Positions 4,899-58,952 of a stretch of DNA of 64,000 nt are shown piece by piece. The translations under genes were made by a program, and so were the position numbers. The stretch comes from Escherichia coli. Its GTDB lineage: Bacteria > Pseudomonadota > Gammaproteobacteria > Enterobacterales > Enterobacteriaceae. Every line of letters starts with the position of its first letter. The first letter of the stretch is position 1. The stretch lies in NCBI RefSeq assembly GCF_041886205.1, contig NZ_CP169029.1; one strand, given 5' to 3'. The notes beneath the pieces were generated by a model. It had not been told where the DNA came from, did not search any database, and saw nothing but the letters and a program-made list of their open reading frames with translations.

Positions 4899-4900
4899 TA

Positions 4901-7191: not shown

Positions 7192-7202
7192 GGAAATATC
7201 CC

Positions 7203-8541
7203 CATAAGCGCTAACTTAAGGGTTGTGGTATTACGCCTGATATGATTTAACGTGCCGATGAATTACTCTCACGATAACTGGTCAGCAATTCTGGCCCATA
7301 TTGGTAAGCCCGAAGAACTGGATACTTCGGCACGTAATGCCGGGGCTCTAACCCGCCGCCGCGAAATTCGTGATGCTGCAACTCTGCTACGTCTGGGGCT
7401 GGCTTACGGCCCCGGGGGGATGTCATTACGTGAAGTCACTGCATGGGCTCAGCTCCATGACGTTGCAACATTATCTGACGTGGCTCTCCTGAAGCGGCTG
7501 CGGAATGCCGCCGACTGGTTTGGCATACTTGCCGCACAAACACTTGCTGTACGCGCCGCAGTTACGGGTTGTACAAGCGGAAAGAGATTGCGTCTTGTCG
7601 ATGGAACAGCAATCAGTGCGCCCGGGGGCGGCAGCGCTGAATGGCGACTACATATGGGATATGATCCTCATACCTGTCAGTTCACTGATTTTGAGCTAAC
7701 CGACAGCAGAGACGCTGAACGGCTGGACCGATTTGCGCAAACGGCAGACGAGATACGCATTGCTGACCGGGGATTCGGTTCGCGTCCCGAATGTATCCGC
7801 TCACTTGCTTTTGGAGAAGCTGATTATATCGTCCGGGTTCACTGGCGAGGATTGCGCTGGTTAACTGCAGAAGGAATGCGCTTTGACATGATGGGTTTTC
7901 TGCGCGGGCTGGATTGCGGTAAGAACGGTGAAACCACTGTAATGATAGGCAATTCAGGTAATAAAAAAGCCGGAGCTCCCTTTCCGGCACGTCTCATTGC
8001 CGTATCACTTCCTCCCGAAAAAGCATTAATCAGTAAAACCCGACTGCTCAGCGAGAATCGTCGAAAAGGACGAGTAGTTCAGGCGGAAACGCTGGAAGCA
8101 GCGGGCCATGTGCTATTGCTAACATCATTACCGGAAGATGAATATTCAGCAGAGCAAGTGGCTGATTGTTACCGTCTGCGATGGCAAATTGAACTGGCTT
8201 TTAAGCGGCTCAAAAGTTTGCTGCACCTGGATGCTTTGCGTGCAAAGGAACCTGAACTCGCGAAAGCGTGGATATTTGCTAATCTACTCGCCGCATTTTT
8301 AATTGACGACATAATCCAGCCATCGCTGGATTTCCCCCCCAGAAGTGCCGGATCCGAAAAGAAGAACTAACTCGTTGTGGAGAATAACAAAAATGGTCAT
8401 CTGGAGCTTACAGGTGGCCATTCGTGGGACAGTATCCCTGACAGCCTACAAAACGCAATTGAAGAACGCGAGGCATCGTCTTAACGAGGCACCGAGGCGT
8501 CGCATTCTTCAGATGGTTCAACCCTTAAGTTAGCGCTTATG
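7203..8541 (+). mobile_element. IS186 (IS4 family), complete 1339-bp copy
   Basis: 23-bp terminal inverted repeats CATAAGCGCTAACTTAAGGGTTG at 7203-7225 and 8519-8541 (rc); flanked by 11-bp direct duplication GGAAATATCCC at 7192-7202 and 8542-8552 in a GGGG-N6-CCCC target. Confidence 0.85.
7252..8370 (+). CDS. insL: IS186 transposase (DDE, IS4 family)
   Basis: 372-aa ORF with C-terminal YRLRWQIELAFKRLK motif typical of IS4-family transposases; lies between the IS186 inverted repeats. Confidence 0.85.
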   Translation: MPMNYSHDNWSAILAHIGKPEELDTSARNAGALTRRREIRDAATLLRLGLAYGPGGMSLREVTAWAQLHDVATLSDVALLKRLRNAADWFGILAAQTLAVRAAVTGCTSGKRLRLVDGTAISAPGGGSAEWRLHMGYDPHTCQFTDFELTDSRDAERLDRFAQTADEIRIADRGFGSRPECIRSLAFGEADYIVRVHWRGLRWLTAEGMRFDMMGFLRGLDCGKNGETTVMIGNSGNKKAGAPFPARLIAVSLPPEKALISKTRLLSENRRKGRVVQAETLEAAGHVLLLTSLPEDEYSAEQVADCYRLRWQIELAFKRLKSLLHLDALRAKEPELAKAWIFANLLAAFLIDDIIQPSLDFPPRSAGSEKKN

Positions 8542-9660
8542 GGAAATATCCCCCTCTTCACCGCTCGAATGGTAAATAAGTCCTGCCAGTCTTGCCATAT
8601 ACTCTGCATTTTTAGCAGCATATTCCCGGCAATGTCTTAAAGGCCCCAATCCCCCCAGCTTCGATTCCACATCATTGTAATAATCCGTCCAGATTCTGGC
8701 AGCCTGAGGAGAAAAGTGAAGGCAACGTCGTTCACCACTCATCGCCAGACTTTCATCAATAAGCTCATTGATCCTCTCTTCAAACAAATCCTGATACTGT
8801 GATGAATAATTATCTCCGGTTATTATCCTTGTCCCCTGCGTTGATGTTGGTTGACACATCAAAAACCTTGCATGATGTCCTGACGTTTTCACAATTTCTT
8901 TTTTTCGCGTACAAAAACCTTTGTGGTAAACATCAGGCTGAATCATCACCGATATCGTCAGTCTTGGCTCCTTCAAATTAATTCCGGGAGATGATTTCCT
9001 GTCGATGAAAAGAGAACCTCCATCCCACAAAGTGTTAATAATTCCCAGTTTACTCATGGCCCGGCTGTCAAAAATTACCCCCCCTTCACTGGATACAAGA
9101 GCAAAAGAGCGATTGCTGTCGGAATAATATTTTAACATTCCCTCTATCGTTGTCTCATTAAAAATTGTTCGACGTATCTGCGGCGGAACAGGAGGTTTAT
9201 TCAGATGCGTTTCAAGCTCTGATTCTGTTGCCTTGTAATCTTTACCGGCACGAATCTCTTTATGAAATTTTGATTCCAGCGCTTTTTGTTTTTGCTCCCA
9301 TATTTCCTTTTCTGTACTGTAATTCTCAACCAGTTTCGCGTATTCTTCCGCCAGGGCTTCATCCCTGAGATAAAATGCTTTCATAAACACTTTATCCACG
9401 GTCGTTTTCCTTTCACCGGAATCAGCCAGAATCAGAGAGTAAAGATTAACAGGCCCATGTAAATTTCCAGGTCTGCACACGTCAATCTGATTCTGACAGG
9501 CAATTGAGATCGCTGTTAATGCGGATGTTGCCACCATAGCCAAAGGTGCCTGTGTATTTTTTTGAGTTTCAATTATTGCATTTCTCACCAGCGGTGGTAG
9601 TGCATATATCGGATAAGGATTTTCTGGTGCAAGTAAGCACATAAAAGCCTCTCTTTTCAT
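8542..9660 (-). pseudogene. N-terminal part of island gene split by IS186 (YfjI/DUF3987-like); as-is ORF reads into the IS to a stop at 8530
   Basis: 376-aa ORF 8530..9660; last codons (EEGDISHKR) are encoded by TSD and IS186 IR; reconstructed uninterrupted gene would be 483 aa. Confidence 0.6.
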
Positions 9661-9674
9661 TAATGGGTTAGTAA

Positions 9675-9717
9675 AATAGCAGCAAATCCCGCTACAATAG
9701 CGAAAATAGCTGCTATT
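9675..9717 (-). promoter_or_regulatory. Nested palindrome (AATAGCAGC-N24-GCTGCTATT with inner CGCTA-CAA-TAGCG) in leader of the split gene; candidate operator
   Basis: Seen directly, 15-57 nt upstream of start codon at 9660; repeated in the duplicated copy at 10141-10180. Confidence 0.4.
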
Positions 9718-9860
9718 CAGACCTGATGCTCTGAGAAATACAGAGCATTTGTAGATCTGATGTTTAATAAACCGATAAGGTTAATTCAGTGAAGACTGTA
9801 TTATTCACCACGAAATATCATTCATATTTCTCATTCTTAATACCTCCAGAAATTATTTCA

Positions 9861-10190
9861 CTAATACCTTTCCCCCGGTCTTTTCCCTTTCTCCAGAACC
9901 ATAGTGTAAATATTAACGGCCCCACGTAAATTTCCGGGACTGCATACGTCAACCTGATTCTGACAGGCAATTGACATCGCTGTTAATACTGACATTGCAA
10001 CCAGAGTCAGAGGTACTTGTTTATTGTATTGAGCTTTAATTATTGCCTTCCCTATCATTGATGGTCATGCATATACTGAATACGGCATATCCGGTTTGAT
10101 GTAAGACATAAATGCTTCCTTTTTCGTAATACGTTTCGGTTATAGCAGCAATTACCGCTACAATAGCGACAATAGCTGCTCTTTCAACAA
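9861..10190 (-). repeat. Partial tandem duplication of the 5' end and leader of the split island gene (truncated paralogous ORF 9861..10058)
   Basis: 9861-10190 aligns to 9380-9730 at roughly 85% identity by eye; ORF 9861..10058 (MIGKAIIKAQYNKQVPLTLVAMSVLTAMSIACQNQVDVCSPGNL...) parallels the N-terminus of ORF 8530..9660. Confidence 0.6.
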
Positions 10191-10284
10191 TGAATGCTGG
10201 AAATTCTGTTTATCAATTAAACTTCTGGATAAATTGTTCTTATGCTTCTTTTTCCTCCTGAGGTGATCACGTGATGACAAAAAC

Positions 10285-10593
10285 TTATCTGCTCATGGTC
10301 ATATCTGAAGAAAGCGTATGTCGCACTTCGTCATTAACACCTTTGACTGCTGATCTGGCAGGTACAGTATGTAAAGTAAGCCATTCGTCAATAGCTGATG
10401 AACGCCAGCCCACAGAACCACTACCAAGACGTACCGGCCTGGGGAAGGTTGCATCGTAGTATTTCGATAACGGATTCATTTTTTCGTAAATTGTCGAACG
10501 AGATATACCTAACAATTGGCTCAGTTCAGGCATCCGTAAGATGCGTGAAGGAGTCCAGCAGTATCCGGATTGATCTGGCATTTTATCCCCCAT
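10285..10593 (-). CDS. alpA: AlpA-family phage/island HTH regulator (start codon uncertain; alternatives at 10581 or 10665)
   Basis: Contains ILRMPELSQLLGISRSTIYEKMNP...YDATFPRPVRLGSGSVGWRSSAIDEWL, matching the AlpA signature (YDATFP...SVGW...EIDEWL). Confidence 0.6.
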   Translation of the reverse strand: MGDKMPDQSGYCWTPSRILRMPELSQLLGISRSTIYEKMNPLSKYYDATFPRPVRLGSGSVGWRSSAIDEWLTLHTVPARSAVKGVNDEVRHTLSSDMTMSR

Positions 10594-10789
10594 AGTGTGG
10601 TGAACTGTCGTTACAGTTTGTATTCCCCGGGTAAATTTGTCTGCGTAAAAAAATGGGCTGAGCAAAAAGACAATAAATAATTAAAAATCAATACGATAGA
10701 AAACAACAGCATTATTGTTATTTTACTTTCACCTTATCGCTGTCGATTCTCATTATCATTCATTGGTAAAAAACAGCAAAAGAGGCCCT

Positions 10790-11553
10790 GGTAATGACTC
10801 CAGTCAGTAGTACAGTGTTTTCGACAAATGAACCAATGGCTTTTCGTGAATTTCCAGGGAGCGTGAAAAGCAAATCGTTTTCCGGGCTGGTCGTTTGATG
10901 TGAGTACGAAGTGTCAGATTGTTGCACTCAATGCGCCGGGTAAATATCTTGCCGACAAGATGCTTATCCTGTGGCATTTCTCTGGTATAACTGCTCCGGT
11001 TGTCTCTGGTTATCATGCCTGTGGAGAATGGCTTCAGGAGTTCCGGCAACTCACGACATGTTTCATCAGTGCGAGGACCAAAAGTGTAAGCCAGCACACC
11101 TCCAGATTTGGTGTTATACGCATACCAGTGCCACTGCTGACGAGCTTTGTTTTCGACAAAACTCCATTGTTCATCAAGTTCGCAGATAAGCGTCACATCG
11201 GCACTGGCGACTGGAGATGTGGTTACTTTGCGTGGTGAGCGTTTTATAAAGTGAGAATGACGGTGTTGATATCCACCTTCAGCGTTCTGGAACTATCGCG
11301 AACCCCGACTCCGTTATGAACCATTTCAACAATTTGCTCTTTAATGCCTGGTTTTCGGGTTTCGTAGATGTAATTCAGTTGAAATACACACGTTTGCAGG
11401 ATTAGCACTGGAAACGCTCATGATCTGAGGTGCTGTGATCATAATGGTACACTTTATAGGAATTACAGCTGGGAGAATGTACTGTAACTGTTGCCATATG
11501 GTCTCCAGATACCAATAGAATACCACATTAATCTATCGTCAGAAGGCATCACC
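10790..11553 (-). mobile_element. Degenerate IS1-family element (764 bp; insA frameshifted, insB N-terminal region degenerate)
   Basis: Terminus GGTAATGACTCC at 10790; ORF 10804..11196 matches IS1 InsB C-terminal half (QWHWYAYNTKSGGVLAYTFGPRTDETCREL...KTICFSRSLEIHEK); manual translation upstream gives InsA-like MATVTVHSPSCNSYKVY... then, after a frameshift, LNYIYETRKPGIKEQIVEMVHNGVGVRDSSRTLKVDINTVILTL; other terminus ...GCATCACC at 11546-11553. Confidence 0.65.
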
Positions 11554-11693
11554 GGGGCCTTCTGACATAATCTGTTAATACGTGTACTATTACCCTGTTC
11601 AGAAAATATTGATTCAAAAATGAAAACCAGTTAACAGAAAAGCAAAATGATATAATGTTAAAATTTTATATAGTGCAATAAAAGGAGAATGTT

Positions 11694-13511
11694 ATGTATA
11701 ATTTTATCACTATAATGTATGATGTCTTTTCATGTTTTGGTGTTCTGGCTAAAAACCAGAATACCCGTGACATCCGAAATATTAAAAATTTTTCCTCACA
11801 TCAATATTCACTGGGCGACATGTTTGATGAATTAATAAACATTATTGATAAAGAACAAGTATTGAGTACAGAACAACGAAAAGTTATATTTAGGAGATAT
11901 GAAGATCTCTATGTTAAGCTAATGCACTATTCTGTTTTTACAGACCAAACACATCAAATAATAAAACAAAAATATTTTAATGACATTGTACCAATGATTC
12001 TCGCACTCGACATCAGGAACACATATCGCCCGGATAATGAGATGGCATTTTACTATCATATTCATTCTTTTCTCACTCAGATACCGGATAATGAGGATGA
12101 TATATATCATGCTGCAAGGACATATCTGCGAAATTACGTTAAGTTATGTTTATCCGGATACACACCAGCGAATGCGCATTTCAAAGATATCTTTGATGGC
12201 GTATATGAATTCATTCGTAATATTCGCAAAAACAGTACACCAGGAAAAACAAAACTTATCGCAACTATCAACACATGCAAAGAAACCTGTAAACATCTGC
12301 TTTATTTAAGTAATGAAGACAAGGAAAAAATAATTTCTGACTTAGATAAAGTTCAGGTTGCATGTTATTATCTCACTATATTACTGGCTTTCGAAAGACG
12401 AACTTCATTAACAAGCACCCTGGCAACTTTATATAAAATGCTGATAAGCGAAAGAGAAGTTTCAGAATATGAATGCCAGTTATTATATTTAACCAACCCA
12501 ATAGATGTAATGAATATACTGAACAAATACATATATTACTTTCCTAATGAAAACTCACCATTTTATACACTGAAAATTGACAGTGCATTATCGTGGGATG
12601 CCATTGACGCAATACGAGACTATAGTATTTCTGATATTTATCTTTATCCTGAACAAAAAACAATAAATTGTGTCGTTGAGATTGAAAACATTGTCTTTGG
12701 CGGTTACATTTATACATTGAACAACGGCGTCACATTACAAAACATAGAAAACACTTTAAAAGATTCTTCATGCCATTATGTCTTAAATGGCTATACAGAA
12801 TTTGTTAACTGTTTGATACAACTTACTTCAGGAAAGACTGAAAGTGTTCATCGCACCATCAATAAACTGAACTATGAGAAATTACCTTTTGGATTTATCA
12901 TTGCCGCGTTTGCTATACTAAAGATAGCATTTAAAATAAAATTCAGTAAAAATCATGTAAATATCCGAGCATTATTAAATGACATCAATTATTTTATGAC
13001 TTATCAGGGCGAGTCCATTAACCTTATTTCACTGGATCACGAATACCCAGAGTCCTGTCTTCAAAATGACACAAACACATATTTATTAGGAAGAGTAATA
13101 TTTCTGTATAACTCAATGATTTATAAGTTCATAAACTGTCAGGAACATGAAACCAATAACATTCACTCAGCTATGATAAATAACCTATTACAGGAAGTTG
13201 ATATAGCCCTTGGTAAAATAAATAACATTATAGACAGCAGAAACATATCAGCCCCCCATGAACTGGCAAATATTCTTACCCGCGAAAAAATACTTACAAC
13301 ACGGGAAAAAAAAGGAAACCTGATAAGCCTGTTTGATGGATTCACTTTATTCCATTGTGTTGGAATGATAACCTTTCTTATCCATTATCTCAGAACACCT
13401 GAAGAAAAAGTTGAAAATATATTTATGTTATATGGTGCAGATAAAAACAATAAACTACGCAGAAGACTGATTTATGACGCACTAGGAATAATTCAGTCTC
13501 AGCAGGAGTGA
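11694..13511 (+). CDS. Hypothetical 605-aa protein, AT-rich cargo gene in the int-alpA hotspot; no recognisable catalytic motif
   Basis: Long uninterrupted ORF in very AT-rich DNA; SD aaaggaga 5 nt upstream of ATG; TATAAT at 11651-11656; convergent with integrase. Confidence 0.7.
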   Translation: MYNFITIMYDVFSCFGVLAKNQNTRDIRNIKNFSSHQYSLGDMFDELINIIDKEQVLSTEQRKVIFRRYEDLYVKLMHYSVFTDQTHQIIKQKYFNDIVPMILALDIRNTYRPDNEMAFYYHIHSFLTQIPDNEDDIYHAARTYLRNYVKLCLSGYTPANAHFKDIFDGVYEFIRNIRKNSTPGKTKLIATINTCKETCKHLLYLSNEDKEKIISDLDKVQVACYYLTILLAFERRTSLTSTLATLYKMLISEREVSEYECQLLYLTNPIDVMNILNKYIYYFPNENSPFYTLKIDSALSWDAIDAIRDYSISDIYLYPEQKTINCVVEIENIVFGGYIYTLNNGVTLQNIENTLKDSSCHYVLNGYTEFVNCLIQLTSGKTESVHRTINKLNYEKLPFGFIIAAFAILKIAFKIKFSKNHVNIRALLNDINYFMTYQGESINLISLDHEYPESCLQNDTNTYLLGRVIFLYNSMIYKFINCQEHETNNIHSAMINNLLQEVDIALGKINNIIDSRNISAPHELANILTREKILTTREKKGNLISLFDGFTLFHCVGMITFLIHYLRTPEEKVENIFMLYGADKNNKLRRRLIYDALGIIQSQQE

Positions 13512-13698
13512 AACGTTAAAACAGGCAAATTGTTTTTTATAAATAGGAGATTGTTGAGTAATCCCCTGTTTATAAAAATACGCTTTCCTGACGATCTGAT
13601 AATTATCAGCTCAATACATTTGACATAAAAGCGGTTCCTTAATTACTACTGCCACGATCACATATCAAATCATGATCGTACAATATACATTTTCACTA

Positions 13699-14901
13699 TT
13701 ATTTATTCACAATTTGAGACATCACATAATCCGCCCATGCCTGCATCATCGGTACACGCTGCTCCAGTAGATCAGTACGATGATATGCCGCCTCAACCTT
13801 ATTTTTCAGCGTATGAGCGAGCGCCCTTTCCGCCAGATCCCGCGAATACCCCTGTTCACTACACCAGTCCCTGAATGTTGAGCGAAAACCATGTGCCGTG
13901 GCAACTCGCCCCGGAATGTCACTGACGGCTTTCTTTTTACGCAGAAAACTTGTCAACACCATATCGGAAAGGATCTGCTGCTTTCTGGGTGAAGGGAACA
14001 CCAGTTCATCATGCAGGCCACGTATATTTTCCAGAATGTAAATAGCCTGCCGGGATAAAGGAACACGATGCTGTAGCCTGGCTTTCATTCTTTCTGCAGG
14101 TATAGTCCATACCCGCTTATGAAAATCAATTTCAGCCCAGCGCATTCCCCTGGCTTCGCCCGAGCGAGTTGCTGTAAGTATCACCATTAATAACAGTGCG
14201 CGGGTAACATTATAAGGTTCATCACTATACACACTGGTCGCCACAAAAAGCGGTAACTGCCTCCAGGGCATTGCTGGTTGGTGTTCATCACGTCCTCTTG
14301 TCTGCTGAGGAAGCAAATGGTCAACCACATCAACAGGATTTGCCACACAAAAACCGTGCGCCCATCCCCACTGCATAACAACATGAATGCGCTGTTTAAC
14401 CCGGCTTGCCGTTTCTGACAAGGTTAACCAGACTGGACGCAGTGTTTCTGCCACGTCCGCAGCCGTAATCGAATCCAGCGTTTTTGCTCCCAGTTGAGGA
14501 AACGCGTAATTCTCAAGCGTCGATAACCACTGCCTTACATGCTTTGGATTTTCCCATCCTGGAGACAATTCTGCATGTACACGCCTGGCTGCATCGGCAA
14601 ATGTTGGGATAACGACTTTCTCAGATTCAGCCTTTTTAATCTCCAGAGGATCATCACCTGCAGCAAGTTGCTCTCGCATTATCCGGGCAGTACGTGCAGC
14701 TTCAGCAATACTGACCTCTGGGTAAGTTCCCAATCCAGCATTACGTCTTTTTTGTGTCACCGGACTTACATAACGAAAAACCCATTTCCCCCGCCCCTTT
14801 ACTGAAGAAGGATGAAGGGTCAGTCCGGTAATTCCCCCATGGGGCAATGGTTTGTCATCAGGTTTGATATGTCTTGCTTTCGTATCCGTCAATACTGCCA
14901 T
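13699..14901 (-). CDS. int: Tyrosine site-specific integrase, P4/CP4-57 IntA-like
   Basis: 400-aa ORF; N-terminal LTDTKARHIKP...FRYVSP arm-binding-type region and C-terminal catalytic motifs (HGFRSTFRDW, LAH, Y in EAAYHR). Confidence 0.9.
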   Translation of the reverse strand: MAVLTDTKARHIKPDDKPLPHGGITGLTLHPSSVKGRGKWVFRYVSPVTQKRRNAGLGTYPEVSIAEAARTARIMREQLAAGDDPLEIKKAESEKVVIPTFADAARRVHAELSPGWENPKHVRQWLSTLENYAFPQLGAKTLDSITAADVAETLRPVWLTLSETASRVKQRIHVVMQWGWAHGFCVANPVDVVDHLLPQQTRGRDEHQPAMPWRQLPLFVATSVYSDEPYNVTRALLLMVILTATRSGEARGMRWAEIDFHKRVWTIPAERMKARLQHRVPLSRQAIYILENIRGLHDELVFPSPRKQQILSDMVLTSFLRKKKAVSDIPGRVATAHGFRSTFRDWCSEQGYSRDLAERALAHTLKNKVEAAYHRTDLLEQRVPMMQAWADYVMSQIVNK

Positions 14902-15044
14902 ACGCTAATTCCCGTCACTCTGGTATGCCATCCAGTATGCCATTAGTCTCTCGCTTCACTAAGAATACATTAGATAATATCGGACAACAAAAAGTGTAAT
15001 ACATTGTTTATAATGAAATTATATAACACCCCTGGATTAAGTCA

Positions 15045-15525
15045 GATTTATTTCAGGCGGTCCCCCTCACCGCCATATTTAAAGAAGAGCTCGTACGAAA
15101 GTACGGGCTTTTTTTTCGTATATTGCACACACCGGGGGGATGAGAATCCCCGACCGGGGGTCGACAACTGGCGGCAGCCAGTTGGACAGACCGTGAACGC
15201 AGTGAGCGGGCTGCCCGCAGGGCGAGCGAAGCGAGTCAATCCCCCCCTCACCGCCATATTTAAAGAAGAGCTCGTACGAAAGTACGGGCTTTTTTTTTCG
15301 TATATTGCACACACCGGGGGGATGAGAATCCCCGACCGGGGGTCGACAACTGGCGACAGCCAGTTGGACAGACCGTGAACGCAGTGAGCGGGCTGCCCGC
15401 AGGGCGAGCGAAGCGAGTCAATCCCCCCCTCACCGCCATATTTAAAGAAGAGCTCGTACGAAAGTACGGGCTTTTTTTCGTGTATTGCACACACCGGGGG
15501 GATGAGAATCCCCGACCGGGATACT
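15045..15525. repeat. Tandem direct repeat array, unit about 181 bp, about 2.7 copies
   Basis: Units begin near 15061, 15241 and 15421 with near-identical sequence; each has a terminator-like hairpin plus T-run (gagctcgtacgaaagtacgggcttttttt) and hairpins GGGGAT-GAGA-ATCCCC and CAACTGGC-N4-GCCAGTTG (loop differs between copies, stem conserved). Confidence 0.9.
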
Positions 15526-46651: not shown

Positions 46652-49396
46652 GTGAATTTAACCCTGACCCGAAGACTCTGGATGGGCTTTGCCCTGATGG
46701 CGCTGTTAACCCTGACCAGTACCCTGGTGGGATGGTACAACCTGCGCTTTATCAGCCAGGTGGAAAAAGACAACACTCAGGCATTGATTCCTACCATGAA
46801 TATGGCGCGCCAGTTGAGCGAAGCCAGCGCCTGGGAACTTTTCGCCGCGCAGAACCTGACCAGTGCCGATAACGAAAAGATGTGGCAGGCGCAGGGGCGA
46901 ATGCTCACCGCACAAAGCCTGAAGATTAATGCGTTGCTGCAAGCGTTACGGGAACAAGGTTTTGATACCACCGCTATTGAACAACAGGAGCAGGAGATCT
47001 CCCGTTCGTTACGTCAGCAAGGGGAACTGGTGGGGCAGCGTTTGCAACTGCGCCAGCAACAACAGCAACTCAGTCAGCAGATAGTCGCTGCCGCCGATGA
47101 GATCGCACGCCTGGCGCAAGGTCAGGCGAATAATGCGGCAACCTCCGCCGGAGCGACCCAGGCCGGGATTTACGATTTGATCGAACAAGATCAGCGTCAG
47201 GCTGCTGAAAGTGCACTCGACCGGCTGATTGATATCGATCTTGAGTATGTTAACCAGATGAATGAACTGCGCCTTAGCGCCCTGCGGGTGCAGCAAATGG
47301 TGATGAATCTGGGGCTGGAACAGATCCAGAAAAATGCGCCAATGCTGGAAAAGCAGCTCAATAATGCGGTGAAAATTCTGCAACGTCGGCAAATACGCAT
47401 TGAAGATCCGGGTGTTCGCGCGCAGGTCGCAACAACGTTAACTACCGTTAGCCAATATAGCGATTTGCTGGCGCTGTATCAGCAGGACAGTGAAATCAGC
47501 AATCACCTACAAACTCTCGCCCAAAATAACATCGCCCAGTTCGCGCAGTTTAGCAGCGAAGTCAGTCAGCTGGTCGACACCATTGAGCTGCGTAATCAGC
47601 ACGGACTGGCGCATCTGGAAAAAGCCAGTGCACGCGGGCAATACAGCCTGTTATTGCTGGGGATGGTTTCACTTTGCGCACTGATTCTGATCCTCTGGCG
47701 CGTGGTTTATCGCTCAGTCACGCGTCCACTTGCCGAACAAACGCAGGCGCTGCAACGGCTGCTGGACGGTGATATTGACTCCCCTTTCCCGGAAACCGCT
47801 GGCGTACGGGAGCTGGATACCATCGGGCGGCTGATGGATGCGTTTCGCAGCAGTGTTCATGCACTGAATCGCCACCGCGAACAGCTGGCGGCGCAGGTCA
47901 AAGCGCGTACAGCTGAATTGCAGGAACTGGTGATAGAACACCGACAGGCACGGGCGGAAGCAGAAAAAGCCAGCCAGGCAAAATCGGCGTTTCTGGCGGC
48001 GATGAGCCATGAGATCCGCACACCGCTGTACGGTATTCTCGGCACTGCTCAACTGCTGGCAGATAACCCCGCACTTAACGCCCAGCGTGATGATTTGCGG
48101 GCGATTACCGACTCTGGCGAATCGTTGCTGACCATCCTGAACGATATTCTCGATTATTCGGCTATCGAAGCGGGTGGCAAGAATGTTTCGGTCAGCGATG
48201 AGCCCTTTGAACCGCGCCCGCTGCTGGAAAGTACCCTGCAATTAATGAGCGGACGGGTGAAAGGTCGCCCGATTCGCCTGGCAACGGCAATTGCCGATGA
48301 TGTACCGAGCGCGTTAATGGGCGATCCACGACGTATTCGTCAGGTCATTACCAACCTATTGAGCAATGCCCTGCGTTTTACTGACGAAGGGCAGATCGTT
48401 TTACGTAGCCGCACTGATGGCGAGCAATGGCTGGTCGAAGTGGAAGACAGCGGCTGCGGTATTGATCCCGCGAAACTGGCAGAAATCTTCCAGCCATTTG
48501 TGCAGGTAAGCGGCAAACGCGGCGGCACCGGGCTGGGGCTGACTATCAGTAGCCGTCTGGCCCAGGCGATGGGCGGCGAACTCAGCGCCACCAGCACGCC
48601 GGAGGTTGGAAGCTGTTTTTGTTTACGCTTGCCGTTACGTGTTGCCACGGCACCCGTGCCAAAAACAGTCAATCAGGCGGTGCGTCTTGACGGTTTACGT
48701 TTGCTGTTAATTGAAGATAACCCGCTAACCCAGCGAATTACCGTTGAGATGCTGAACACCAGTGGTGCGCAGGTTGTTGCTGTTGGCAATGCCGCGCAGG
48801 CTTTAGAGACACTGCAAAATAGCGAACCGTTTGCTGCCGCACTGGTGGATTTTGATCTGCCGGATGTCGACGGCATTACGCTTGCCCGACAACTGGCACA
48901 GCAATATCCGTCGCTGGTTTTGATTGGCTTTAGCGCCCATGTCATTGACGAAACGCTGCGCCAGCGTACCAGTTCATTATTCCGCGGGATTATCCCTAAA
49001 CCGGTGCCGCGTGAAGTGCTCGGTCAGTTACTGGCGCACTATCTCCAACTGCAAGTCAATAACGATCAATCGCTGGATGTATCGCAACTCAATGAAGATG
49101 CTCAGTTAATGGGGACGGAGAAGATCCACGAATGGCTGGTATTATTTACACAACATGCCCTGCCGCTTCTCGATGAAATCGACATTGCCCGCGCCAGTCA
49201 GGATAGCGAGAAAATAAAGCGTGCCGCGCATCAGCTAAAAAGCAGTTGCTCGAGTTTGGGAATGCGTATCGCCAGCCAGCTATGCGCACAACTGGAGCAG
49301 CAGCCATTATCTGCCCCCCTTCCACACGAAGAAATTACACGCAGTGTTGCCGCTCTGGAAGCATGGTTGCATAAGAAAGACCTGAACGCGATTTGA
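46652..49396 (+). CDS. torS: Hybrid sensor kinase TorS
   Basis: 914-aa ORF with HisKA (MSHEIRTP), receiver and HPt domains. Confidence 0.95.
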
Positions 49397-49467
49397 ATCA
49401 ATATCAGCCAGTTAAGAACAACTAGAATAGTGGCATTTGGTATGCAACTTAACGGACTGGCAAAATC

Positions 49468-50541
49468 ATGGCAGAGAAAAAAAGAACCCGCTGGCAGCGG
49501 CGGCCAGGCACGACGGGCGGCAAATTACCGTGGAATGACTGGCGCAATGCCACGACCTGGCGTAAAGCGACGCAATTATTACTGTTGGCAATGAATATTT
49601 ATATTGCCATCACGTTCTGGTATTGGGTGCGCTATTATGAAACGGCAAGTAGCACGACATTTGTCGCCAGACCGGGAGGTATCGAAGGCTGGCTACCGAT
49701 TGCCGGTCTGATGAATCTGAAATATAGCCTTACAACAGGTCAGTTACCGTCCGTCCACGCCGCCGCGATGCTGTTATTGGTCGCTTTTATCGTCATCAGT
49801 CTATTACTCAAAAAGGCCTTTTGCTCATGGTTATGCCCGGTTGGTACGCTTTCTGAATTAATCGGCGATCTCGGTAACAAACTGTTTGGTCGGCAATGTG
49901 TCCTTCCCCGCTGGCTGGATATTCCTCTGCGCGGCGTGAAGTATTTGCTGTTGAGTTTTTTTCTCTATATCGCGTTATTGATGCCCGCTCAGGCGATTCA
50001 CTATTTTATGTTGTCGCCCTACAGCGTGGTGATGGACGTTAAAATGCTCGATTTCTTTCGTCATATGGGGACCGCGACATTAATCAGCGTGACCGTTTTG
50101 CTGATTGCCAGCCTGTTTATTCGCCATGCCTGGTGTCGTTATCTTTGCCCATATGGCGCGCTGATGGGCGTGGTTTCGCTATTGTCGCCGTTTAAGATTC
50201 GTCGCAATGCCGAAAGTTGTATCGACTGTGGCAAATGCGTAAAAAATTGCCCATCACGGATCCCGGTAGATAAATTAATTCAGGTACGAACAGTGGAATG
50301 TACCGGCTGTATGACTTGCGTAGAGTCATGTCCGGTAGCCTCAACATTGACCTTTTCACTGCAAAAACCTGCGGCAAATAAAAAAGCTTTTGCGTTGTCT
50401 GGCTGGTTAATGACGCTACTGGTTCTGGGGATTATGTTCGCGGTGATTGGTTACGCAATGTATGCGGGAGTATGGCAAAGCCCGGTGCCGGAGGAATTGT
50501 ACCGACGCTTAATTCCACAAGCGCCAATGATTGGTCACTAA
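49468..50541 (+). CDS. yccM: Membrane 4Fe-4S ferredoxin-type protein YccM
   Basis: 357-aa ORF with CxxCxxCxxxCP clusters. Confidence 0.9.
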   Translation: MAEKKRTRWQRRPGTTGGKLPWNDWRNATTWRKATQLLLLAMNIYIAITFWYWVRYYETASSTTFVARPGGIEGWLPIAGLMNLKYSLTTGQLPSVHAAAMLLLVAFIVISLLLKKAFCSWLCPVGTLSELIGDLGNKLFGRQCVLPRWLDIPLRGVKYLLLSFFLYIALLMPAQAIHYFMLSPYSVVMDVKMLDFFRHMGTATLISVTVLLIASLFIRHAWCRYLCPYGALMGVVSLLSPFKIRRNAESCIDCGKCVKNCPSRIPVDKLIQVRTVECTGCMTCVESCPVASTLTFSLQKPAANKKAFALSGWLMTLLVLGIMFAVIGYAMYAGVWQSPVPEELYRRLIPQAPMIGH

Positions 50542-50589
50542 ATTAGCAACAAGCGGAACATCACCTCGCACGGGGTGATGTTCACAAAA

Positions 50590-50763
50590 TCACATTATTT
50601 TGATTTTGACATCATAACTTTCAAGCCCGGTCATTTTTTCTCGTGCGGTGAAGCGAATTTCAGAGACTTCTTTCCCTGTATTCTTGTTCAGCTCGGCGAT
50701 TTTTTGCGCGATAAAGTCGGCGATTTCCGTTTCGGCTTGTTTTTTTAACTCTTCAATATTCAC
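50590..50763 (-). CDS. gnsA: GnsA (GTG start)
   Basis: Manual translation VNIEELKKQAETEIADFIAQKIAELNKNTGKEVSEIRFTAREKMTGLESYDVKIKIM; not in supplied ORF track. Confidence 0.8.
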   Translation of the reverse strand: MNIEELKKQAETEIADFIAQKIAELNKNTGKEVSEIRFTAREKMTGLESYDVKIKIM

Positions 50764-50983
50764 TGTTAACCTCTTCTGGTCTTAAAAGACAGCAACACGC
50801 CAGTAAGGTGTTGGTTCCCGGTACCCTGGTCAGGTAAGAAATGTTATAAGCCATCTCCCCGAAAGATTCAATAATCAACAGGTTATCGCTTACTATACAT
50901 ACAGCGTTGAAGAAAAATAAGGCAGATATAAAAAAGGCTCCACGAGGGAGCCTGATATTATTTTGTGAAATCCAGCGGCGCAT
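50753..50983 (-). CDS. ymcE: Cold-shock-locus small protein YmcE
   Basis: 76-aa product from MRRWISQNNIRLPRG... within ORF 50753..51016. Confidence 0.7.
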   Translation of the reverse strand: MRRWISQNNIRLPRGAFFISALFFFNAVCIVSDNLLIIESFGEMAYNISYLTRVPGTNTLLACCCLLRPEEVNSEY

Positions 50984-51156
50984 GGTCAGTGCGTATTTGC
51001 AGCGCGACGTTATCAAAGGTGATCATCGTCGATTTACAAAAAATACACTTAGCGCCCAAAGGGTTTCGCTCCGTCACATCGAATGCCGATGTGCGGTACT
51101 GTGAACCATGACAACATGGACAGCGGAAATGGAGATGTTGAGTAATAATGGCAACC

Positions 51157-51369
51157 TTAGAGCGTAACAACGTTCGCTGCCGCGGGGCCACGTTGCCCCT
51201 GCTCAATAGAAAATTCAACTTTCTGATTTTCGTTCAGCGTGCGGAATTCATTGCTCTGGATGGCGGTGAAATGGACGAAAACGTCTTTGCTGCCATCATC
51301 AGGAGTGATAAAGCCAAAACCTTTATCTGCGTTAAACCATTTTACTAAACCAGTCATTTTATTAGACAT
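51157..51369 (-). CDS. cspG: Cold shock protein CspG
   Basis: 70-aa CSD protein ([21 protein letters not shown]). Confidence 0.9.
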
Positions 51370-51654
51370 ATTTTACTTCCTTCATTTTGGGCCTTTCGGC
51401 AAACAGGGCTTTAATACAGAAACTACTTAGTGTTCAGGAGAGAGACTCAAAAGAAGGGGATAATGCCTGATAATGAGAACTGCTTTAGTAAACTACTTTG
51501 TATGCTGTCTGTCTTTCAAACCGACGCAGCTATTAACGCATGATAATTGAGATTAAGCAAATTTTATTTTAGCCGTCCGGCGGTCTTAAATATCGCTGGC
51601 TTTATTTTATTAACCCCGTATAGTGCAGCGCAGTATTTTCAGTAAGGAATTTGT

Positions 51655-51867
51655 TTGTCCCGTAAAATGACAGGAATTGTCAAAACCTTTGATCGCAAAA
51701 GCGGCAAAGGATTCATTATCCCCTCCGACGGTCGTAAAGAAGTTCAGGTCCATATTTCCGCATTCACTCCCCGCGACGCAGAAGTGCTTATACCAGGATT
51801 ACGTGTGGAATTTTGCCGCGTAAATGGCCTGCGAGGACCAACAGCGGCAAATGTTTATCTCTCTTAA
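51655..51867 (+). CDS. cspH: Cold shock-like protein CspH
   Basis: 70-aa CSD protein ([21 protein letters not shown]). Confidence 0.9.
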
Positions 51868-52355
51868 TATGACGCTGCTTGTTTAAAGCTGACTGGTTTT
51901 ATTGGAATAGTGCAATAGTCAACATCATACATTATAACATCAGTTACTTTTCCACAAAGAAACTAATCCATTTAAGCGAATATCTCTGCACCTAATAGTT
52001 ATAAATGCCATTTAACAGCCAGTTATAGTACCACTTGAAACTATATTACCAACAATAATTAATAGCTTTCGTAACAATTTCCTTATCTTTAATTTGTATT
52101 TTGCTAAGATTTATCTTATGCTCACAAGTCGTATTTCCAGAGGGGGATAGTTAACAATCTTATATTTCCCTCTGCGCGCCTTTCCTACCCGCAGTATATA
52201 GTGCAAGCGGTATGAGGAAAGGGAGATTTCACAAGGATGTTATACTCAAAGTAGACAATCCTGATCTCAAGCGTACGTATTGTCCATGCGATGAATAAAG
52301 GAAAAGTTATGAAACACAAGCTTTCTGATCCTACCCACGTAATGTGGACACGGCC

Positions 52356-53222
52356 CTAAGCGAGATTATGGTTTTCAAATTGTTCCGGGCTGAGACCGCC
52401 ACAGGCACTGTGACGACGCCAGCGATTGTAATCACACTCGATATAATTAAACACCGTTGCCCGCATTATTTCCCGGCTGCTAAAGCGTTCTCCATGGATA
52501 CATTCCACTTTCAGCGAATGAAAGAAGCTTTCCACGCAGGCATTATCGTAGCAGCAACCTTTTGCGCTCATACTTCCACGCAGATTATGCCGCTTCAGTT
52601 GCGCCTGATAATCTGCTGAACAGTACTGGCCTCCACGGTCCGTGTGAACGATAACGTTCCGGGGCCTCTTACGCCGCCACAGCGCCATCTGCAGGGCATC
52701 GCAGGCCAGTTGCGCCGTCATGCGTGGCGACATTGACCAGCCAATAACGGCACGTGACCACAGGTCAATGACCACTGCCAGATACAGCCAGCCTTCATCT
52801 GTACGTAAGTACGTGATGTCTCCTGCCCACTTCTGGTTCGGGCCACTGGCGTAAAAATCCTGCTCCAACAGATTTTCTGACACAGGCAGGCCGTTTGCGC
52901 GGTAGCTGACCGGGCTGAACTTCCGGGAGGCCTTTGCCCTCAGTCCCTGACGGCGCAGGCTTGCCGCCACGGTTTTTACGTTAAAGGGGTAACCCTGAGC
53001 ACGCAGTTCATCCGTCAGGCGTGGGGCACCGTAACGCTGTTTTGACCGGGTAAAAGCCGCGAGGACAACGCTGTCGCAGTGTTGGCGGAACTGCTGACGC
53101 GTGCTTATCCTTGTCCGCCGCTGACACCACGTATACCAGCCGCTGCGGGCCACCCGGAGCACGCGGCACATTGCTTTGATGCTGAACTCAGCCTGATGTT
53201 TTTCAATAAAGACATACTTCAT
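52356..53222 (-). CDS. insF: IS3 transposase OrfB (DDE integrase domain)
   Basis: 288-aa ORF matching IS3 InsF. Confidence 0.9.
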
Positions 53223-53518
53223 TTCAGGCGCTTCGCGAAGTATGTCGCGGCCTTTTGGAGGATAGCCAGCTCTTCATCCCGTTCTGCCAGCTGGCGTTTG
53301 AGACGTGCAATCTCGGTAGACATCTCCAGTTCACGTTCAGAAGACGTCTGCTGATTTTGCTGTTTACTGCGCCAGTTGTAGAGTTGTGATTCATACAGGC
53401 TGAGTTCACGGGCTGCGGCAGTAACACCGATGCGTTCAGCAAGCTTCAGGGCTTCACTGCGAAATTCAGGCGAATGCTGTTTACGGGGTTTTTTACTGGT
53501 TGATACTGTTTTTGTCAT
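53219..53518 (-). CDS. insE: IS3 OrfA (HTH)
   Basis: 99-aa product from [19 protein letters not shown]... Confidence 0.9.
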
Positions 53519-53830
53519 GTGAGTCACCTCTGACTGAGAGTTTACTCACTTAGCCGCGTGTCCACTATTGCTGGGTAAGATCAGCTGCTGGCGCTGTCGG
53601 CACGGCGACAGTTGTCGGTGTGGCAACGGCTGTTGGTGTGGCGACGTTGGCAGTTGTTGCAGCAAATGACAGTGGCGATGGCGGTTCTCATAACACCTCA
53701 ACCACCACGTCCACTACACGCTAATACTGCTTTAACGCGTCGAAATTAAAGTTAAATGATACCCGGTTGCGATATTCGTACCGGGCTTTAGAGATTTGCA
53801 TTTTTTTAATTAACCTTTCAAGGATTAAAG

Positions 53831-54475
53831 GTGCGCCCTCTTATTTTATCGATTTTCGCACTATTTCTTGCGGGATGTACGCACAGCCAGCAAAGTATGG
53901 TCGATACATTTCGCGCCAGCCTTTTCGATAATCAGGATATCACCGTAGCGGATCAGCAGATCCAGGCGTTGCCTTATTCCACTATGTATTTACGCCTTAA
54001 TGAAGGGCAACGAATCTTTGTGGTACTGGGATATATAGAACAAGAACAAAGCAAATGGTTATCCCAGGATAACGCCATGCTGGTTACCCACAATGGACGT
54101 CTTTTAAAAACCGTCAAACTTAATAATAATCTGCTGGAAGTGACAAATTCCGGGCAGGACCCTCTGCGTAACGCGCTGGCAATAAAAGATGGCAGCCGCT
54201 GGACGCGCGATATTCTCTGGAGTGAAGACAACCATTTTCGCTCTGCGACCCTGAGTTCTACTTTTTCCTTTGCTGGATTAGAGACGCTGAATATTGCGGG
54301 TCGCAATGTGCTGTGTAATGTCTGGCAGGAAGAGGTGACTTCCACGCGGCCAGAAAAACAGTGGCAAAACACATTCTGGGTCGATTCGGCTACTGGCCAG
54401 GTTCGTCAAAGTCGGCAAATGTTAGGCGCAGGGGTTATTCCCGTAGAAATGACGTTTCTTAAACCCGCACCATGA
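53831..54475 (+). CDS. gfcB: Lipoprotein GfcB
   Basis: 214-aa ORF with lipobox (LAGC); operon order. Confidence 0.85.
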   Translation: MRPLILSIFALFLAGCTHSQQSMVDTFRASLFDNQDITVADQQIQALPYSTMYLRLNEGQRIFVVLGYIEQEQSKWLSQDNAMLVTHNGRLLKTVKLNNNLLEVTNSGQDPLRNALAIKDGSRWTRDILWSEDNHFRSATLSSTFSFAGLETLNIAGRNVLCNVWQEEVTSTRPEKQWQNTFWVDSATGQVRQSRQMLGAGVIPVEMTFLKPAP

Positions 54476-55218
54476 ATAAATTACAGTCGTATTTCATTGC
54501 CAGCGTACTTTACGTAATGACACCCCATGCCTTTGCGCAAGGAACGGTGACTATTTATCTGCCTGGCGAACAACAGACACTTTCCGTTGGCCCCATGGAA
54601 AATGTTGTCCAGTTGGTGACACAACCGCAACTGCGCGATCGCCTCTGGTGGCCTGGTGCCTTGCTGACCGACTCTGCGGCGAAAGCTAAAGCGCTTAAAG
54701 ACTACCAACATGTCATGGCACAGCTTGCTTCCTGGGAAGCAGAAGCTGACGACGATGTGGCGGCAACGATTAAATCCGTGCGCCAGCAGTTACTCAATCT
54801 CAATATCACTGGTCGCTTACCGGTCAAACTGGACCCTGATTTTGTACGAGTGGATGAGAACAGCAATCCCCCGTTGGTCGGGGACTATACGCTCTATACC
54901 GTACAGCGTCCGGTGACTATTACTCTGCTGGGTGCGGTTTCTGGGGCCGGGCAATTGCCCTGGCAGGCAGGCCGTAGCGTTACCGATTATCTGCAAGATC
55001 ACCCCCGCCTTGCAGGCGCGGACAAGAATAACGTTATGGTGATTACGCCTGAGGGTGAGACTGTCGTCGCCCCTGTTGCCCTGTGGAATAAAAGACATGT
55101 GGAACCACCGCCTGGCAGCCAGCTTTGGTTGGGCTTTTCTGCGCATGTACTGCCCGAAAAATATGCTGATTTAAATGACCAGATTGTGTCTGTTTTAACG
55201 CAACGTGTTCCTGACTGA
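54472..55218 (+). CDS. gfcC: GfcC
   Basis: 248-aa ORF with signal peptide; operon order. Confidence 0.85.
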
Positions 55219-57314
55219 TGAAGAAGAATTCTTATCTTTTAAGCTGCCTGGCCATTGCCGTCTCCAGTGCCTGTCATGCTGAAGTATTAACCTACCCGGA
55301 TCCGCTGGGTTCGTCGCAATCAGACTATGGCGGCACAGGATTGTTGCAGATGCCAAATGCGCGCATCGCACCGGAAGGTGAATTCAGCGTCAACTACCGG
55401 GATAACGATCAATACCGGTTCTACTCCACCTCCGTGGCGCTGTTCCCATGGCTGGAAGGCACCATTCGTTATACGGATGTGCGCACACGCAAATATAGCC
55501 AGTGGGAAGATTTCAGCGGCGATCAGTCATACAAAGACAAATCATTCGATTTTAAACTTCGCCTGTGGGAAGAAGGTTACTGGCTACCGCAAGTGGCGTT
55601 TGGTAAACGTGATATTGCTGGTACGGGTCTGTTTGACGGTGAGTATCTGGTGGCCAGCAAGCAAGCGGGGCCATTTGATTTCACCCTCGGGATGGCATGG
55701 GGCTACGCCGGTAATGCGGGCAATATTACCAACCCGTTTTGCCGGGTGAGCGATAAATATTGTCATCGCGCAGAGTCTCACGATGCGGGCGATATCAGCT
55801 TTAGCGATATCTTTCGTGGCCCGGCTTCCATCTTTGGCGGCATTGAGTATCAAACGCCGTGGAATCCCCTGCGTCTGAAACTCGAATACGATGGCAACAA
55901 TTACCAGAATGATTTCGCTGGCAAACTGCCTCAGGCAAGCCATTTCAACGTCGGCGCAGTTTATCGCGCTGCCAGCTGGGCAGATCTCAACCTGAGTTAT
56001 GAACGCGGTAACACGTTGATGTTTGGCTTCACGTTACGGACCAATTTCAACGATCTGCGCCCTGCCCTGCGCGATACGCCAAAACCGGCATATCAACCTG
56101 CGCCTGAATCTGAAGGATTGCAGTACACCACAGTAGCGAACCAACTTACCGCGCTGAAGTACAACGCAGGTTTTGAAGCACCGGAAATTCAGCTGCGCGA
56201 TAAGACGCTGTATATGTCTGGTCAACAATACAAATACCGTGATTCTCGCGAAGCGGTCGATCGTGCCAACCGGATTCTGGTGAATAACCTGCCGCAAGGC
56301 GTTGAGAAGATTAGCGTGACGCAAAAGCGCGAGCATATGGCGATGGTGACTACCGAAACCGACGTAGCCAGCCTGCGCAAACAGCTGGCTGGTACAGCGC
56401 CTGGTCAATCAGAGCAACTTCAACAACAACGTGTTGAAGCAGAAGATCTTTCTGCCTTTGGTCGGGGCTACCGTATTCGTGAAGATCGCTTTAGCTACTC
56501 TTTCAACCCAACACTTTCACAGTCGCTGGGCGGCCCGGAAGATTTCTATATGTTCCAGCTGGGGCTGATGTCCAGTGCCCGCTACTGGTTTACCGACCAC
56601 CTGCTGCTTGATGGCGGTATTTTCACCAATATTTACAACAACTACGACAAGTTTAAGTCTTCGCTGTTGCCCGCGGACTCTACCCTGCCCCGCGTGCGCA
56701 CGCATATCCGTGACTACGTTCGCAATGACGTTTATCTCAACAACTTGCAGGCGAACTATTTTGCTGACTTAGGCAATGGTTTCTATGGCCAGGTGTATGG
56801 CGGTTATCTGGAAACGATGTACGCCGGTGTCGGTTCCGAGCTGCTTTATCGCCCGCTAGATGCCTGCTGGGCGCTGGGTGTGGACGTTAACTACGTGAAG
56901 CAACGTGACTGGGACAACATGATGCGTTTCACCGATTATTCCACGCCAACAGGTTTCGTGACGGCTTACTGGAACCCGCCGACGCTCAATGGCGTACTGA
57001 TGAAACTTAGCGTTGGGCAATATCTGGCAAAAGATAAAGGCGCAACGATCGACGTCGCCAAACGCTTTGACAGCGGCGTGGCGGTAGGGGTATGGGCGGC
57101 AATCAGTAACGTATCTAAAGATGACTACGGCGAAGGCGGCTTTAGTAAAGGTTTTTATATCTCGATTCCATTCGACTTGATGACCATTGGACCTAACCGC
57201 AACCGCGCGGTGGTTTCGTGGACACCATTGACGCGTGATGGTGGACAAATGCTGTCACGCAAATACCAGCTCTATCCAATGACGGCAGAGCGAGAAGTAC
57301 CGGTTGGACAATAA
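55218..57314 (+). CDS. gfcD: Outer membrane protein GfcD
   Basis: 698-aa ORF with signal peptide; operon order. Confidence 0.85.
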
Positions 57315-57359
57315 CCTGACGTAATTCATAACATTACATTGACTGATAAATATAAACCA

Positions 57360-58499
57360 ATGAAAAAGAACATTTTTAAGTTTTCGGTACTGACATTGGC
57401 TGTTCTGTCTTTGACAGCATGTACCCTTGTTCCTGGTCAGAATTTATCGACCAGTAACAAGGATGTCATTGAACTACCTGACAATCAGTATGACCTGGAC
57501 AAAATGGTCAATATCTATCCCGTCACGCCAGGATTGATTGATCAGTTGCGCGCCAAACCGATTATGTCGCAGGCTAACCCGGAGCTGGAGCAGCAAATCG
57601 CAAACTATGAATATCGTATCGGGATTGGTGATGTGTTGATGGTTACGGTCTGGGATCACCCGGAACTAACCACCCCCGCAGGGCAATACCGTAGCGCCAG
57701 TGATACCGGCAACTGGGTTAACGCCGATGGTGCGATTTTCTACCCCTATATTGGTCGCCTGAAAGTGGCCGGGAAAACACTTACCCAGGTACGCAACGAG
57801 ATTACAGCGCGTCTCGATTCAGTCATTGAAAGCCCGCAAGTCGATGTCAGCGTCGCGGCGTTCCGATCGCAAAAAGCGTACGTCACCGGCGAAGTCAGCA
57901 AATCGGGTCAACAGCCGATTACCAATATTCCTCTGACCATCATGGATGCGATTAACGCCGCGGGCGGTCTGACCGCAGATGCAGACTGGCGCAACGTGGT
58001 GCTCACCCAGAATGGCGTAAAGACCAAAGTGAACCTCTATGCGCTGATGCAGCGTGGCGACTTGCGCCAGAACAAACTGCTGCACCCGGGCGATATTTTA
58101 TTTATTCCGCGCAACGATGATCTGAAAGTCTTCGTGATGGGTGAAGTGGGTAAACAGAGCACGCTGAAAATGGACCGCAGCGGTATGACCCTGGCGGAAG
58201 CGCTGGGTAACGCTGAGGGTATGAATCAGGATGTCGCTGATGCGACGGGGATTTTTGTTATTCGTGCAACGCAAAACAAGCAGAATGGCAAAATCGCCAA
58301 TATTTATCAGCTGAATGCGAAGGACGCATCGGCAATGATACTCGGAACGGAATTCCAGCTTGAACCTTACGACATTGTTTATGTCACTACCGCGCCGCTG
58401 GCTCGTTGGAACCGTGTGATTTCTCTGCTGGTACCGACGATTTCCGGGGTGCATGACCTGACAGAGACTTCACGGTGGATTCAAACATGGCCCAACTAA
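57360..58499 (+). CDS. gfcE: Wza-like outer membrane polysaccharide export lipoprotein GfcE
   Basis: Start [21 protein letters not shown]... (379 aa). Confidence 0.85.
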
Positions 58500-58933
58500 A
58501 ATTTAACTCAATCCTGGTGGTTTGTACCGGCAACATTTGCCGTTCGCCCATTGGCGAGCGCTTGCTGCGTAAACGTCTGCCGGGCGTAAAAGTCAAATCG
58601 GCAGGTGTTCATGGTCTGGTAAAACACCCTGCAGATGCGACAGCGGCAGATGTTGCCGCTAATCATGGCGTATCTCTTGAAGGACATGCCGGACGTAAGC
58701 TCACTGCTGAGATGGCACGAAATTACGATCTGATTCTGGCAATGGAGTCGGAACATATTGCTCAGGTTACCGCAATTGCTCCCGAGGTCCGCGGGAAGAC
58801 AATGCTGTTTGGGCAATGGCTGGAACAGAAAGAGATCCCGGATCCCTATCGTAAAAGTCAGGACGCATTTGAACATGTCTACGGTATGTTGGAGCGCGCC
58901 AGTCAGGAATGGGCGAAGCGCCTCAGCCGGTAA
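58487..58933 (+). CDS. etp: Low-molecular-weight protein-tyrosine phosphatase Etp
   Basis: CTGNICRSP active-site loop; start [12 protein letters not shown]... Confidence 0.9.
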
Positions 58934-58952
58934 TTTGAGTTTATAAAATACG

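Follow-up and report, generated by a model that had tools for sequence, protein, structure and literature searches.

A described precedent for the lesion analysed here comes from three populations of the long-term evolution experiment (LTEE), in which 14 of 83 insertion sequence (IS) movements were accompanied by deletions of between 14 bp and 48.9 kb and left no target-site duplication (Ngan et al. 2024, PMC11708052). All 14 of these deletion-associated movements involved IS150, a member of the IS3 family, and in every case the IS had been present at the same position earlier (PMC11708052). In our literature search, we did not find adjacent deletion documented for IS3 itself, unlike for IS150 or IS911, and a search combining gfcA and IS3 gave no earlier account of such an insertion. 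In K-12, the group 4 capsule operon carries an IS lesion, with IS1D lying between cspH and gfcA (PMC12428005), and the same arrangement is seen in our genome collection, in agreement with the initial annotation of this DNA, which had placed an IS1 upstream of the K-12 operon. In EPEC O127, formation of the O-antigen capsule reportedly depends on each of the seven g4c genes, according to the citation of Peleg et al. 2005 given in PMC4368438, and GfcA is presumed to be a small protein, rich in Thr, that is either secreted or located in the inner membrane (PMC8592465).

The window, by which we mean the whole stretch of 64,000 nucleotides of the Escherichia coli contig NZ_CP169029.1 that was analysed, carries a complete IS3 of 1258 bp within gfcA, with its transposase on the minus strand, as located from the sequence by script (Table 1). 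The element has TG...CA ends (TGATC...GATCA), and its imperfect terminal inverted repeats agree at 29 of 39 positions. Because both orfA and orfB lie on the minus strand, the end of the element with the lower window coordinates is IRR, and that with the higher is IRL. The product of orfB matches PF13333 and PF13276 in addition to PF00665, and orfB overlaps orfA in the -1 frame (ATGA); an identical copy in E. coli wlxctx60 is annotated in RefSeq as an IS3 family transposase with a predicted programmed frameshift.

The left flank of the IS ends in ATGAAACACAAGCTTTC, which corresponds to gfcA nt 1-17, with the T of IS3 completing codon 6 (Ser), such that gfcA is interrupted after MKHKL(S), precisely as had been proposed from a first reading of the DNA. 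The right flank begins with GCTGCTGGCGCT, at gfcA nt 166, and is in frame to the stop codon at 53722-53724; the interval initially assigned to the lesion, 52309-53724, has the start and stop codons of gfcA as its precise limits. The description of the IS as inserted in codon 6 holds for the left junction, but not for the right junction, which lies in codon 56 and may, by analogy with a pair of alleles discussed below, mark the original insertion site. Since the flanking triplets differ, being TTC on the left and GCT on the right, this copy of IS3 is without the 3-bp (occasionally 4-bp) target-site duplication that IS3 makes. We also considered a duplication hidden by the choice of boundary, but re-inspection with the boundary moved by 1-2 nt created no 3-bp duplication, and the difference between the triplets noted at first reading stands. 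The missing duplication reflects the history of the copy in the window, rather than a property of the element.

We used the intact 306-bp gfcA of wlxctx60 (L003 3836-4141, where L numbers denote loci) as the reference against which to describe the lesion. Relative to this gene, exactly 148 bp are absent from the window, namely nt 18-165 (codons 6-55), confirming by alignment that the IS is accompanied by an adjacent deletion, as the initial annotation had considered probable. The missing 148 bp abut the IS terminus, and the ends of the deletion share no microhomology. Both 400-bp flanks of the IS show 0 mismatches to wlxctx60, as does the window from 48474 to 52325. The lost segment encodes the hydrophobic N-terminal (signal/membrane) region of GfcA and most of its Thr-rich tract, and neither this segment nor an intact gfcA is found elsewhere in the window. 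The two fragments that remain (nt 1-17 and 166-306) are identical to the WP_001295358-encoding gfcA of wlxctx60, and have the same neighbours, in the order cspH - gfcA - gfcBCDE - etp - etk - appA, such that the stub and remnant are not an unrelated sequence with an intact gfcA present at another position of the window.

The 101-codon frame of gfcA is thus broken, with codons 6-55 replaced by IS3. The frame of the stub continues into IS3 as far as a stop codon at 52357-52359, giving a 16-codon open reading frame (ORF), and the frame of the 3' remnant, read from its upstream stop inside IRL, offers no start codon ahead of the remnant. gfcA is a pseudogene in this strain, and, as judged from these reading frames, the anticipated abolition of GfcA is borne out, all that is left being the 16-codon stub and 46 codons without a start. 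The genes from gfcB to etk differ from those of wlxctx60 by 2 nt and 2 aa altogether.

Table 1. Positions of the IS3 copy and the gfc genes in the window, of related IS3 copies in other genomes, and of the further IS3 sites at gfcA. Positions are window coordinates unless a locus (L number) or gfcA is named.
Feature	Position	Strand or orientation	Remarks
DDE_Tnp_1 transposase	7252-8370		within window 1-15061
DUF3987 protein	8530-9660	-	within window 1-15061
P4-type integrase	13699-14901	-	within window 1-15061
cspH-gfcA intergenic region	51868-52308	+	unaltered; presumed to hold the gfc promoter region
gfcA 5' stub	52309-52325	+	nt 1-17 (MKHKL + 2 nt of codon 6)
IS3, complete, mosaic variant	52326-53583	-	bounded by IRR (52326) and IRL (53583)
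IRR (right terminal inverted repeat)	52326-52364	-	adjoins gfcA nt 17
IS3 orfB	52356-53222	-	288 aa, DDE integrase core; rve, PF00665, E = 6e-28
IS3 orfA	53219-53518	-	99 aa; HTH_Tnp_1, PF01527, E = 5e-10
IRL (left terminal inverted repeat)	53545-53583	-	adjoins gfcA nt 166
gfcA 3' remnant	53584-53724	+	nt 166-306, 46 codons + stop
gfcB, gfcC, gfcD, gfcE, etp, etk	53831-61133	+	full length, no internal stops
Identical mosaic IS3 in wlxctx60	L011 2501-3758		beside a truncated papB/focB-like regulator
IS3 locus, LR-46	L007 1141-2398
IS3 locus, EA2	L015 759-2016
IS3 locus, F3_13_1_3	L016 1047-2260
IS3 site	about -105	window's orientation	duplication TGC
IS3 site	~52 bp upstream of gfcA ATG		two states: EA2/F3_13_1_3 vs LR-46
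IS3 site	gfcA 76-78	window's orientation	duplication ACA
IS3 site	gfcA 117-119	window's orientation	duplication AAC
IS3 site, mip270_04 (L010 1144-2401)	gfcA 131-134	opposite (only such site)	4-bp duplication GTGC
IS3 site	gfcA 144-146	window's orientation	duplication TGC
IS3 site	gfcA 178-180	window's orientation	duplication GTC
IS3 site	gfcA 266-268	window's orientation	duplication GTT
IS3 site	gfcA 279-281	window's orientation	duplication CTC
IS3 site	gfcA 282-284	window's orientation	duplication AAC

The closest complete genomes to the window are those of E. coli wlxctx60 and 6EVA, both of which have an intact gfcA between cspH and gfcB. Leaving the IS3/gfcA lesion apart, the window differs from wlxctx60 by about 6-9 substitutions over ~48 kb, with 2 in 30 kb upstream, or 5 when the count covers window 15062-52325, and 4 downstream (53584-64000, 10.4 kb), in addition to one indel in a repeat. 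As there are so few substitutions, the gfcA lesion must postdate a very recent split. Searches for the exact sequence of the IS3-gfcA junctions found neither junction among 5,426 complete E. coli genomes, nor in GTDB species-representative contigs or JGI metagenome contigs. Within the collections searched, the IS3-gfcA allele is therefore private to the source strain, and it is recent.

The relationship to wlxctx60 also delimits a second feature of the window, as the first part of the stretch (1-15061) has no BLAST match of at least 300 bp to the syntenic stretch of wlxctx60 (L012). In addition to the genes listed in Table 1, this part encodes an aldehyde dehydrogenase and an RpiR-type regulator, and it is probably a genomic island. 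We note that wlxctx60 has a tRNA-Ser near the island breakpoint, and that ARAGORN found no tRNA in the window between 13500 and 17000. At the island boundary, window 15062-15520 matches three overlapping positions of wlxctx60 that are 181 bp apart, which points to a tandem repeat of ~181 bp that differs in copy number between the window strain and wlxctx60.

The IS3 copy in the window is a mosaic. It is 98.6% identical over 1258 bp to the IS3 present in REL606 (E. coli B), E. coli C, ATCC 8739 and others, and 16 of the about 17-19 differences from this common IS3 are found within the 161 bp next to IRR (window 52326-52486), with one difference in the remaining ~1,100 bp. Between positions 19 and 161, this IRR-proximal stretch is ~11% divergent from common IS3. 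A copy that is 100% identical to the mosaic is found once at another locus of wlxctx60 (Table 1), which is the sole other complete genome to have it, and that copy is likewise without a duplication (AAT vs CTG); the best identity in 6EVA is 99.6%, and in every further genome is at most 98.8%. It is plausible that a mosaic copy of the wlxctx60 type was the donor for the insertion into gfcA. We also considered the mosaic as the footprint of two IS3 variants recombining at gfcA, and rejected this, as the identical mosaic is already present elsewhere in wlxctx60, where gfcA is free of any IS. Because of this identical copy at another locus, comparison of the copies indicates that the mosaic is an older, lineage-specific variant of IS3, and was not made by the event at gfcA.

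IS3 is found repeatedly in this part of the chromosome. Among the complete genomes, 37 carry an IS3 that lies inside gfcA or a short way upstream and is oriented as in the window, and one carries it in the opposite orientation. Reading of representative loci (L001, L002, L005-L010 and L013-L016, for the region of window 52200-53724) resolved these into ten independent sites in addition to that of the window, giving 11 sites within ~390 bp of gfcA and its leader in complete E. coli genomes. At 10 of these 11 sites, the transposase is antisense to gfc, and at one it is sense (two-sided binomial P ~0.012). A clean duplication of 3-4 bp is present at nine of the ten sites other than that of the window, such that regular insertion is the norm at gfcA, and copies without a duplication represent a derived condition. 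More broadly, the cspH-gfcB interval (query L003 3395-4247) is present in 3,719 of the 5,426 complete genomes, and is split or truncated in 187 of these 3,719 (~5%), such that the head of the gfc operon, being missing, split or truncated in many genomes, is commonly lost or disrupted. IS3 accounts for ~38 of the ~98 large interruptions of this interval, with K-12-type and some other strains carrying IS1 instead.

The collection holds 18,876 IS3 places in total, from which ~1.5 would be expected per 390 bp if all were independent and uniformly distributed, and as the number of truly independent IS3 events must be far below 18,876, the gfcA region is enriched for IS3. Tentatively, one could go further and regard gfcA and its leader as a genuine hotspot for IS3 in which one orientation is strongly preferred, with the allele in the window then being one outcome of recurrent, directional capsule loss or modulation rather than a random event, although we consider this extended reading doubtful. 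A possible cause would be that IS3 prefers certain targets in a strand-asymmetric manner not recognised so far, for instance the GC-rich tract of Thr codons, and another would be selection on how the insertion rewires the expression of gfcB-etk. Alignment of eight duplication-bearing target sites gave no obvious target consensus. As for a replication-linked orientation bias of the IS3 family in general, this has been found to be unsupported in Proteobacteria (P = 0.273; PMC3971601), and we do not take it to be the cause of the skew.

One of the ten further sites, ~52 bp upstream of gfcA, occurs in two states. In EA2 and F3_13_1_3, the IS3 at this position is flanked by an ACA duplication. In LR-46, the IRL junction, the flanks and a rare SNP at position 817 of IS3 are all identical to those of the EA2/F3_13_1_3 insertion, and 18 bp are absent directly at IRR, which correspond to one copy of the duplication and a further 15 bp. 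Comparison of these sequences indicates that EA2/F3_13_1_3 and LR-46 form a natural precursor/product pair, in which IS3 was inserted first and an adjacent deletion followed. As a separate observation, 44 bp are missing from within the IS3 of F3_13_1_3, and the annotation of gfcD in this strain includes an internal stop, both of which suggest that its gfc locus is decaying further.

Taking these observations into account, the history that we favour for the window, albeit with measured confidence, is a normal insertion of IS3 into gfcA, followed later by a transposase-dependent adjacent deletion. A resident IS3 of the lineage would first have entered gfcA by a copy-out-paste-in reaction, with duplication of 3 bp of the target, and a transposase-dependent deletion would then have removed the DNA from one end of the IS to a nearby point, taking one copy of the duplication and 148 bp of gfcA, and leaving the IS complete. 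We favour this two-step route because the LR-46/EA2 pair exhibits it with the same IS at the same locus. The allele in the window shares with an adjacent deletion the complete IS, an IS terminus lying directly at the deletion and the loss of the duplication. A precursor with the same junction and a duplication, that is, IS3 flanked by duplicated GCT (nt 166-168) or duplicated TTC (nt 15-17), was not found among the 5,426 genomes, the GTDB representatives or the JGI metagenomes, which is to be expected for a private allele and is compatible with membership of the adjacent-deletion class. By analogy with LR-46/EA2, the IRR end is the most likely starting point of the deletion, in which case the original target would have been GCT at gfcA nt 166-168 (codon 56), and 151 bp would have been lost from there back to nt 17. 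We infer both the order of the events and the side of the deletion in the source strain through this analogy, and a single analogous pair lends the choice of the IRR side thin support.

The same evidence can be set against a one-step event, in which the two IS3 ends attacked phosphates ~150 bp apart, or IS3 was captured at a deletion break, such that a duplication was never made. An intermediate is absent from every collection searched (the 5,426 genomes, GTDB and JGI), which speaks for a one-step event, and insertion into breaks without duplications has been proposed for IS5 and IS481 (Ngan et al., PMC11708052). However, the absent intermediate is weak evidence for such an event, because the allele is private and recent, and all 14 IS150 deletion events of the LTEE had an earlier plain insertion (PMC11708052), as does the LR-46/EA2 pair, which demonstrates the two-step route with IS3 at the gfcA locus itself. 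We thus consider a one-step origin unlikely.

We regard it as quite improbable that two IS3 copies in the same orientation were inserted separately (at TTC, nt 15-17, and GCT, nt 166-168), and that the interval and one copy were afterwards lost through homologous recombination of the pair. Recombination of this kind is the classical account of IS copies without duplications (PMC11708052), and predicts exactly the flanks that are seen, with one half of each duplication and a net loss of 148 bp; the shared orientation that it needs would also be readily provided by a recurrent IS3 target at which 10 of 11 events are alike. It would, however, require that a rare insertion happened twice within 150 bp, and in a lineage separated by only ~6-9 SNPs over 48 kb from a relative free of the IS, when even one IS3 is present there in only ~38 of the ~3,700 genomes with the locus, and none of the 5,426 genomes carries either of the single insertions or the double insertion. 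Applied to LR-46, the same model would need insertions only 15 bp apart, and yet a precursor with a single insertion exists in that case. Finally, it is hardly credible that the arrangement is an artefact of repeat misassembly, with an IS3 consensus wrongly joined to two pieces of gfcA and 148 bp left out, as, although IS copies are a classic site of assembly errors, both junctions here lie exactly at the IS termini with flanks that match wlxctx60 perfectly, the copy is a lineage-specific mosaic rather than a generic consensus, and real IS3 insertions of this kind are common at gfcA.

Whichever route was taken, the components of a functional group 4 capsule (G4C) are no longer all present, with gfcA destroyed, and gfcB-etk intact as ORFs. 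As the capsule reportedly needs each of the seven gfc genes, in the work on EPEC O127 as it is cited in PMC4368438, we predict by analogy that the strain is without a group 4 (O-antigen) capsule. Between the gfc promoter region and gfcB, there now lie 1.26 kb of untranslated, antisense IS3, and because transcripts must cross this DNA, transcription of gfcB-etk is probably lowered, with Rho-dependent polarity, a prediction that we make from the arrangement of the sequence. A consensus scan found no intrinsic terminator-like site in IS3, with site counts no higher than in shuffled sequence. The initial annotation had also raised the possibility of an outward-reading promoter that would affect the downstream genes, for which we obtain no support: the end that faces gfcB is IRL, and a consensus scan for plus-strand promoter-like sites reading out of IRL toward gfcB found none, again with site counts no higher than in shuffled sequence, a level at which the scan speaks neither for nor against such sites.

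The predicted loss of the capsule bears on phage adsorption, on resistance to serum and defensins and on colonisation of the gut, and the IS3-gfcA allele is in addition a clean natural marker that separates the strain from its near-identical relatives. The orientation-biased target at gfcA could serve for studies of how IS3 chooses its targets, or of selective pressure on commensal E. coli to lose the capsule. The allele also adds a case from a natural isolate to the evidence for an origin of duplication-less copies of IS3-family elements by insertion and subsequent adjacent deletion.

Compared with IS3 of E. coli as it is known, the element in the window has the same length, TG...CA ends, imperfect repeats of ~39 bp, and overlapping orfA (HTH) and orfB (DDE rve) reading frames, and differs in being without the 3-bp duplication and in being a mosaic. 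The IS1D of K-12 is similar in that an IS has likewise altered the start of the gfc operon of a commensal or laboratory lineage, but it is an IS1 of 768 bp with a 9-bp duplication, which lies upstream and leaves the coding sequence of gfcA intact. The allele of LR-46 is closer, with the same IS in the same orientation at the same locus, no duplication and DNA lost beside an intact IS end; in LR-46, however, 18 bp were lost upstream of an intact gfcA, in contrast to the 151-bp loss inside gfcA in the window on our preferred reading, and a precursor is found for LR-46, whereas none is found for the allele in the window. The IS150 events of the LTEE (PMC11708052) share the IS3-family membership, the complete IS, the missing duplication and a deletion abutting one end of the IS, and differ in the element (IS150 rather than IS3), in the setting (a laboratory population rather than a natural isolate) and in that the insertion intermediate was seen there and not for the allele in the window. 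Set beside these systems, the event at gfcA is an ordinary, well-precedented lesion of the IS3 family that has killed a capsule gene in one strain.
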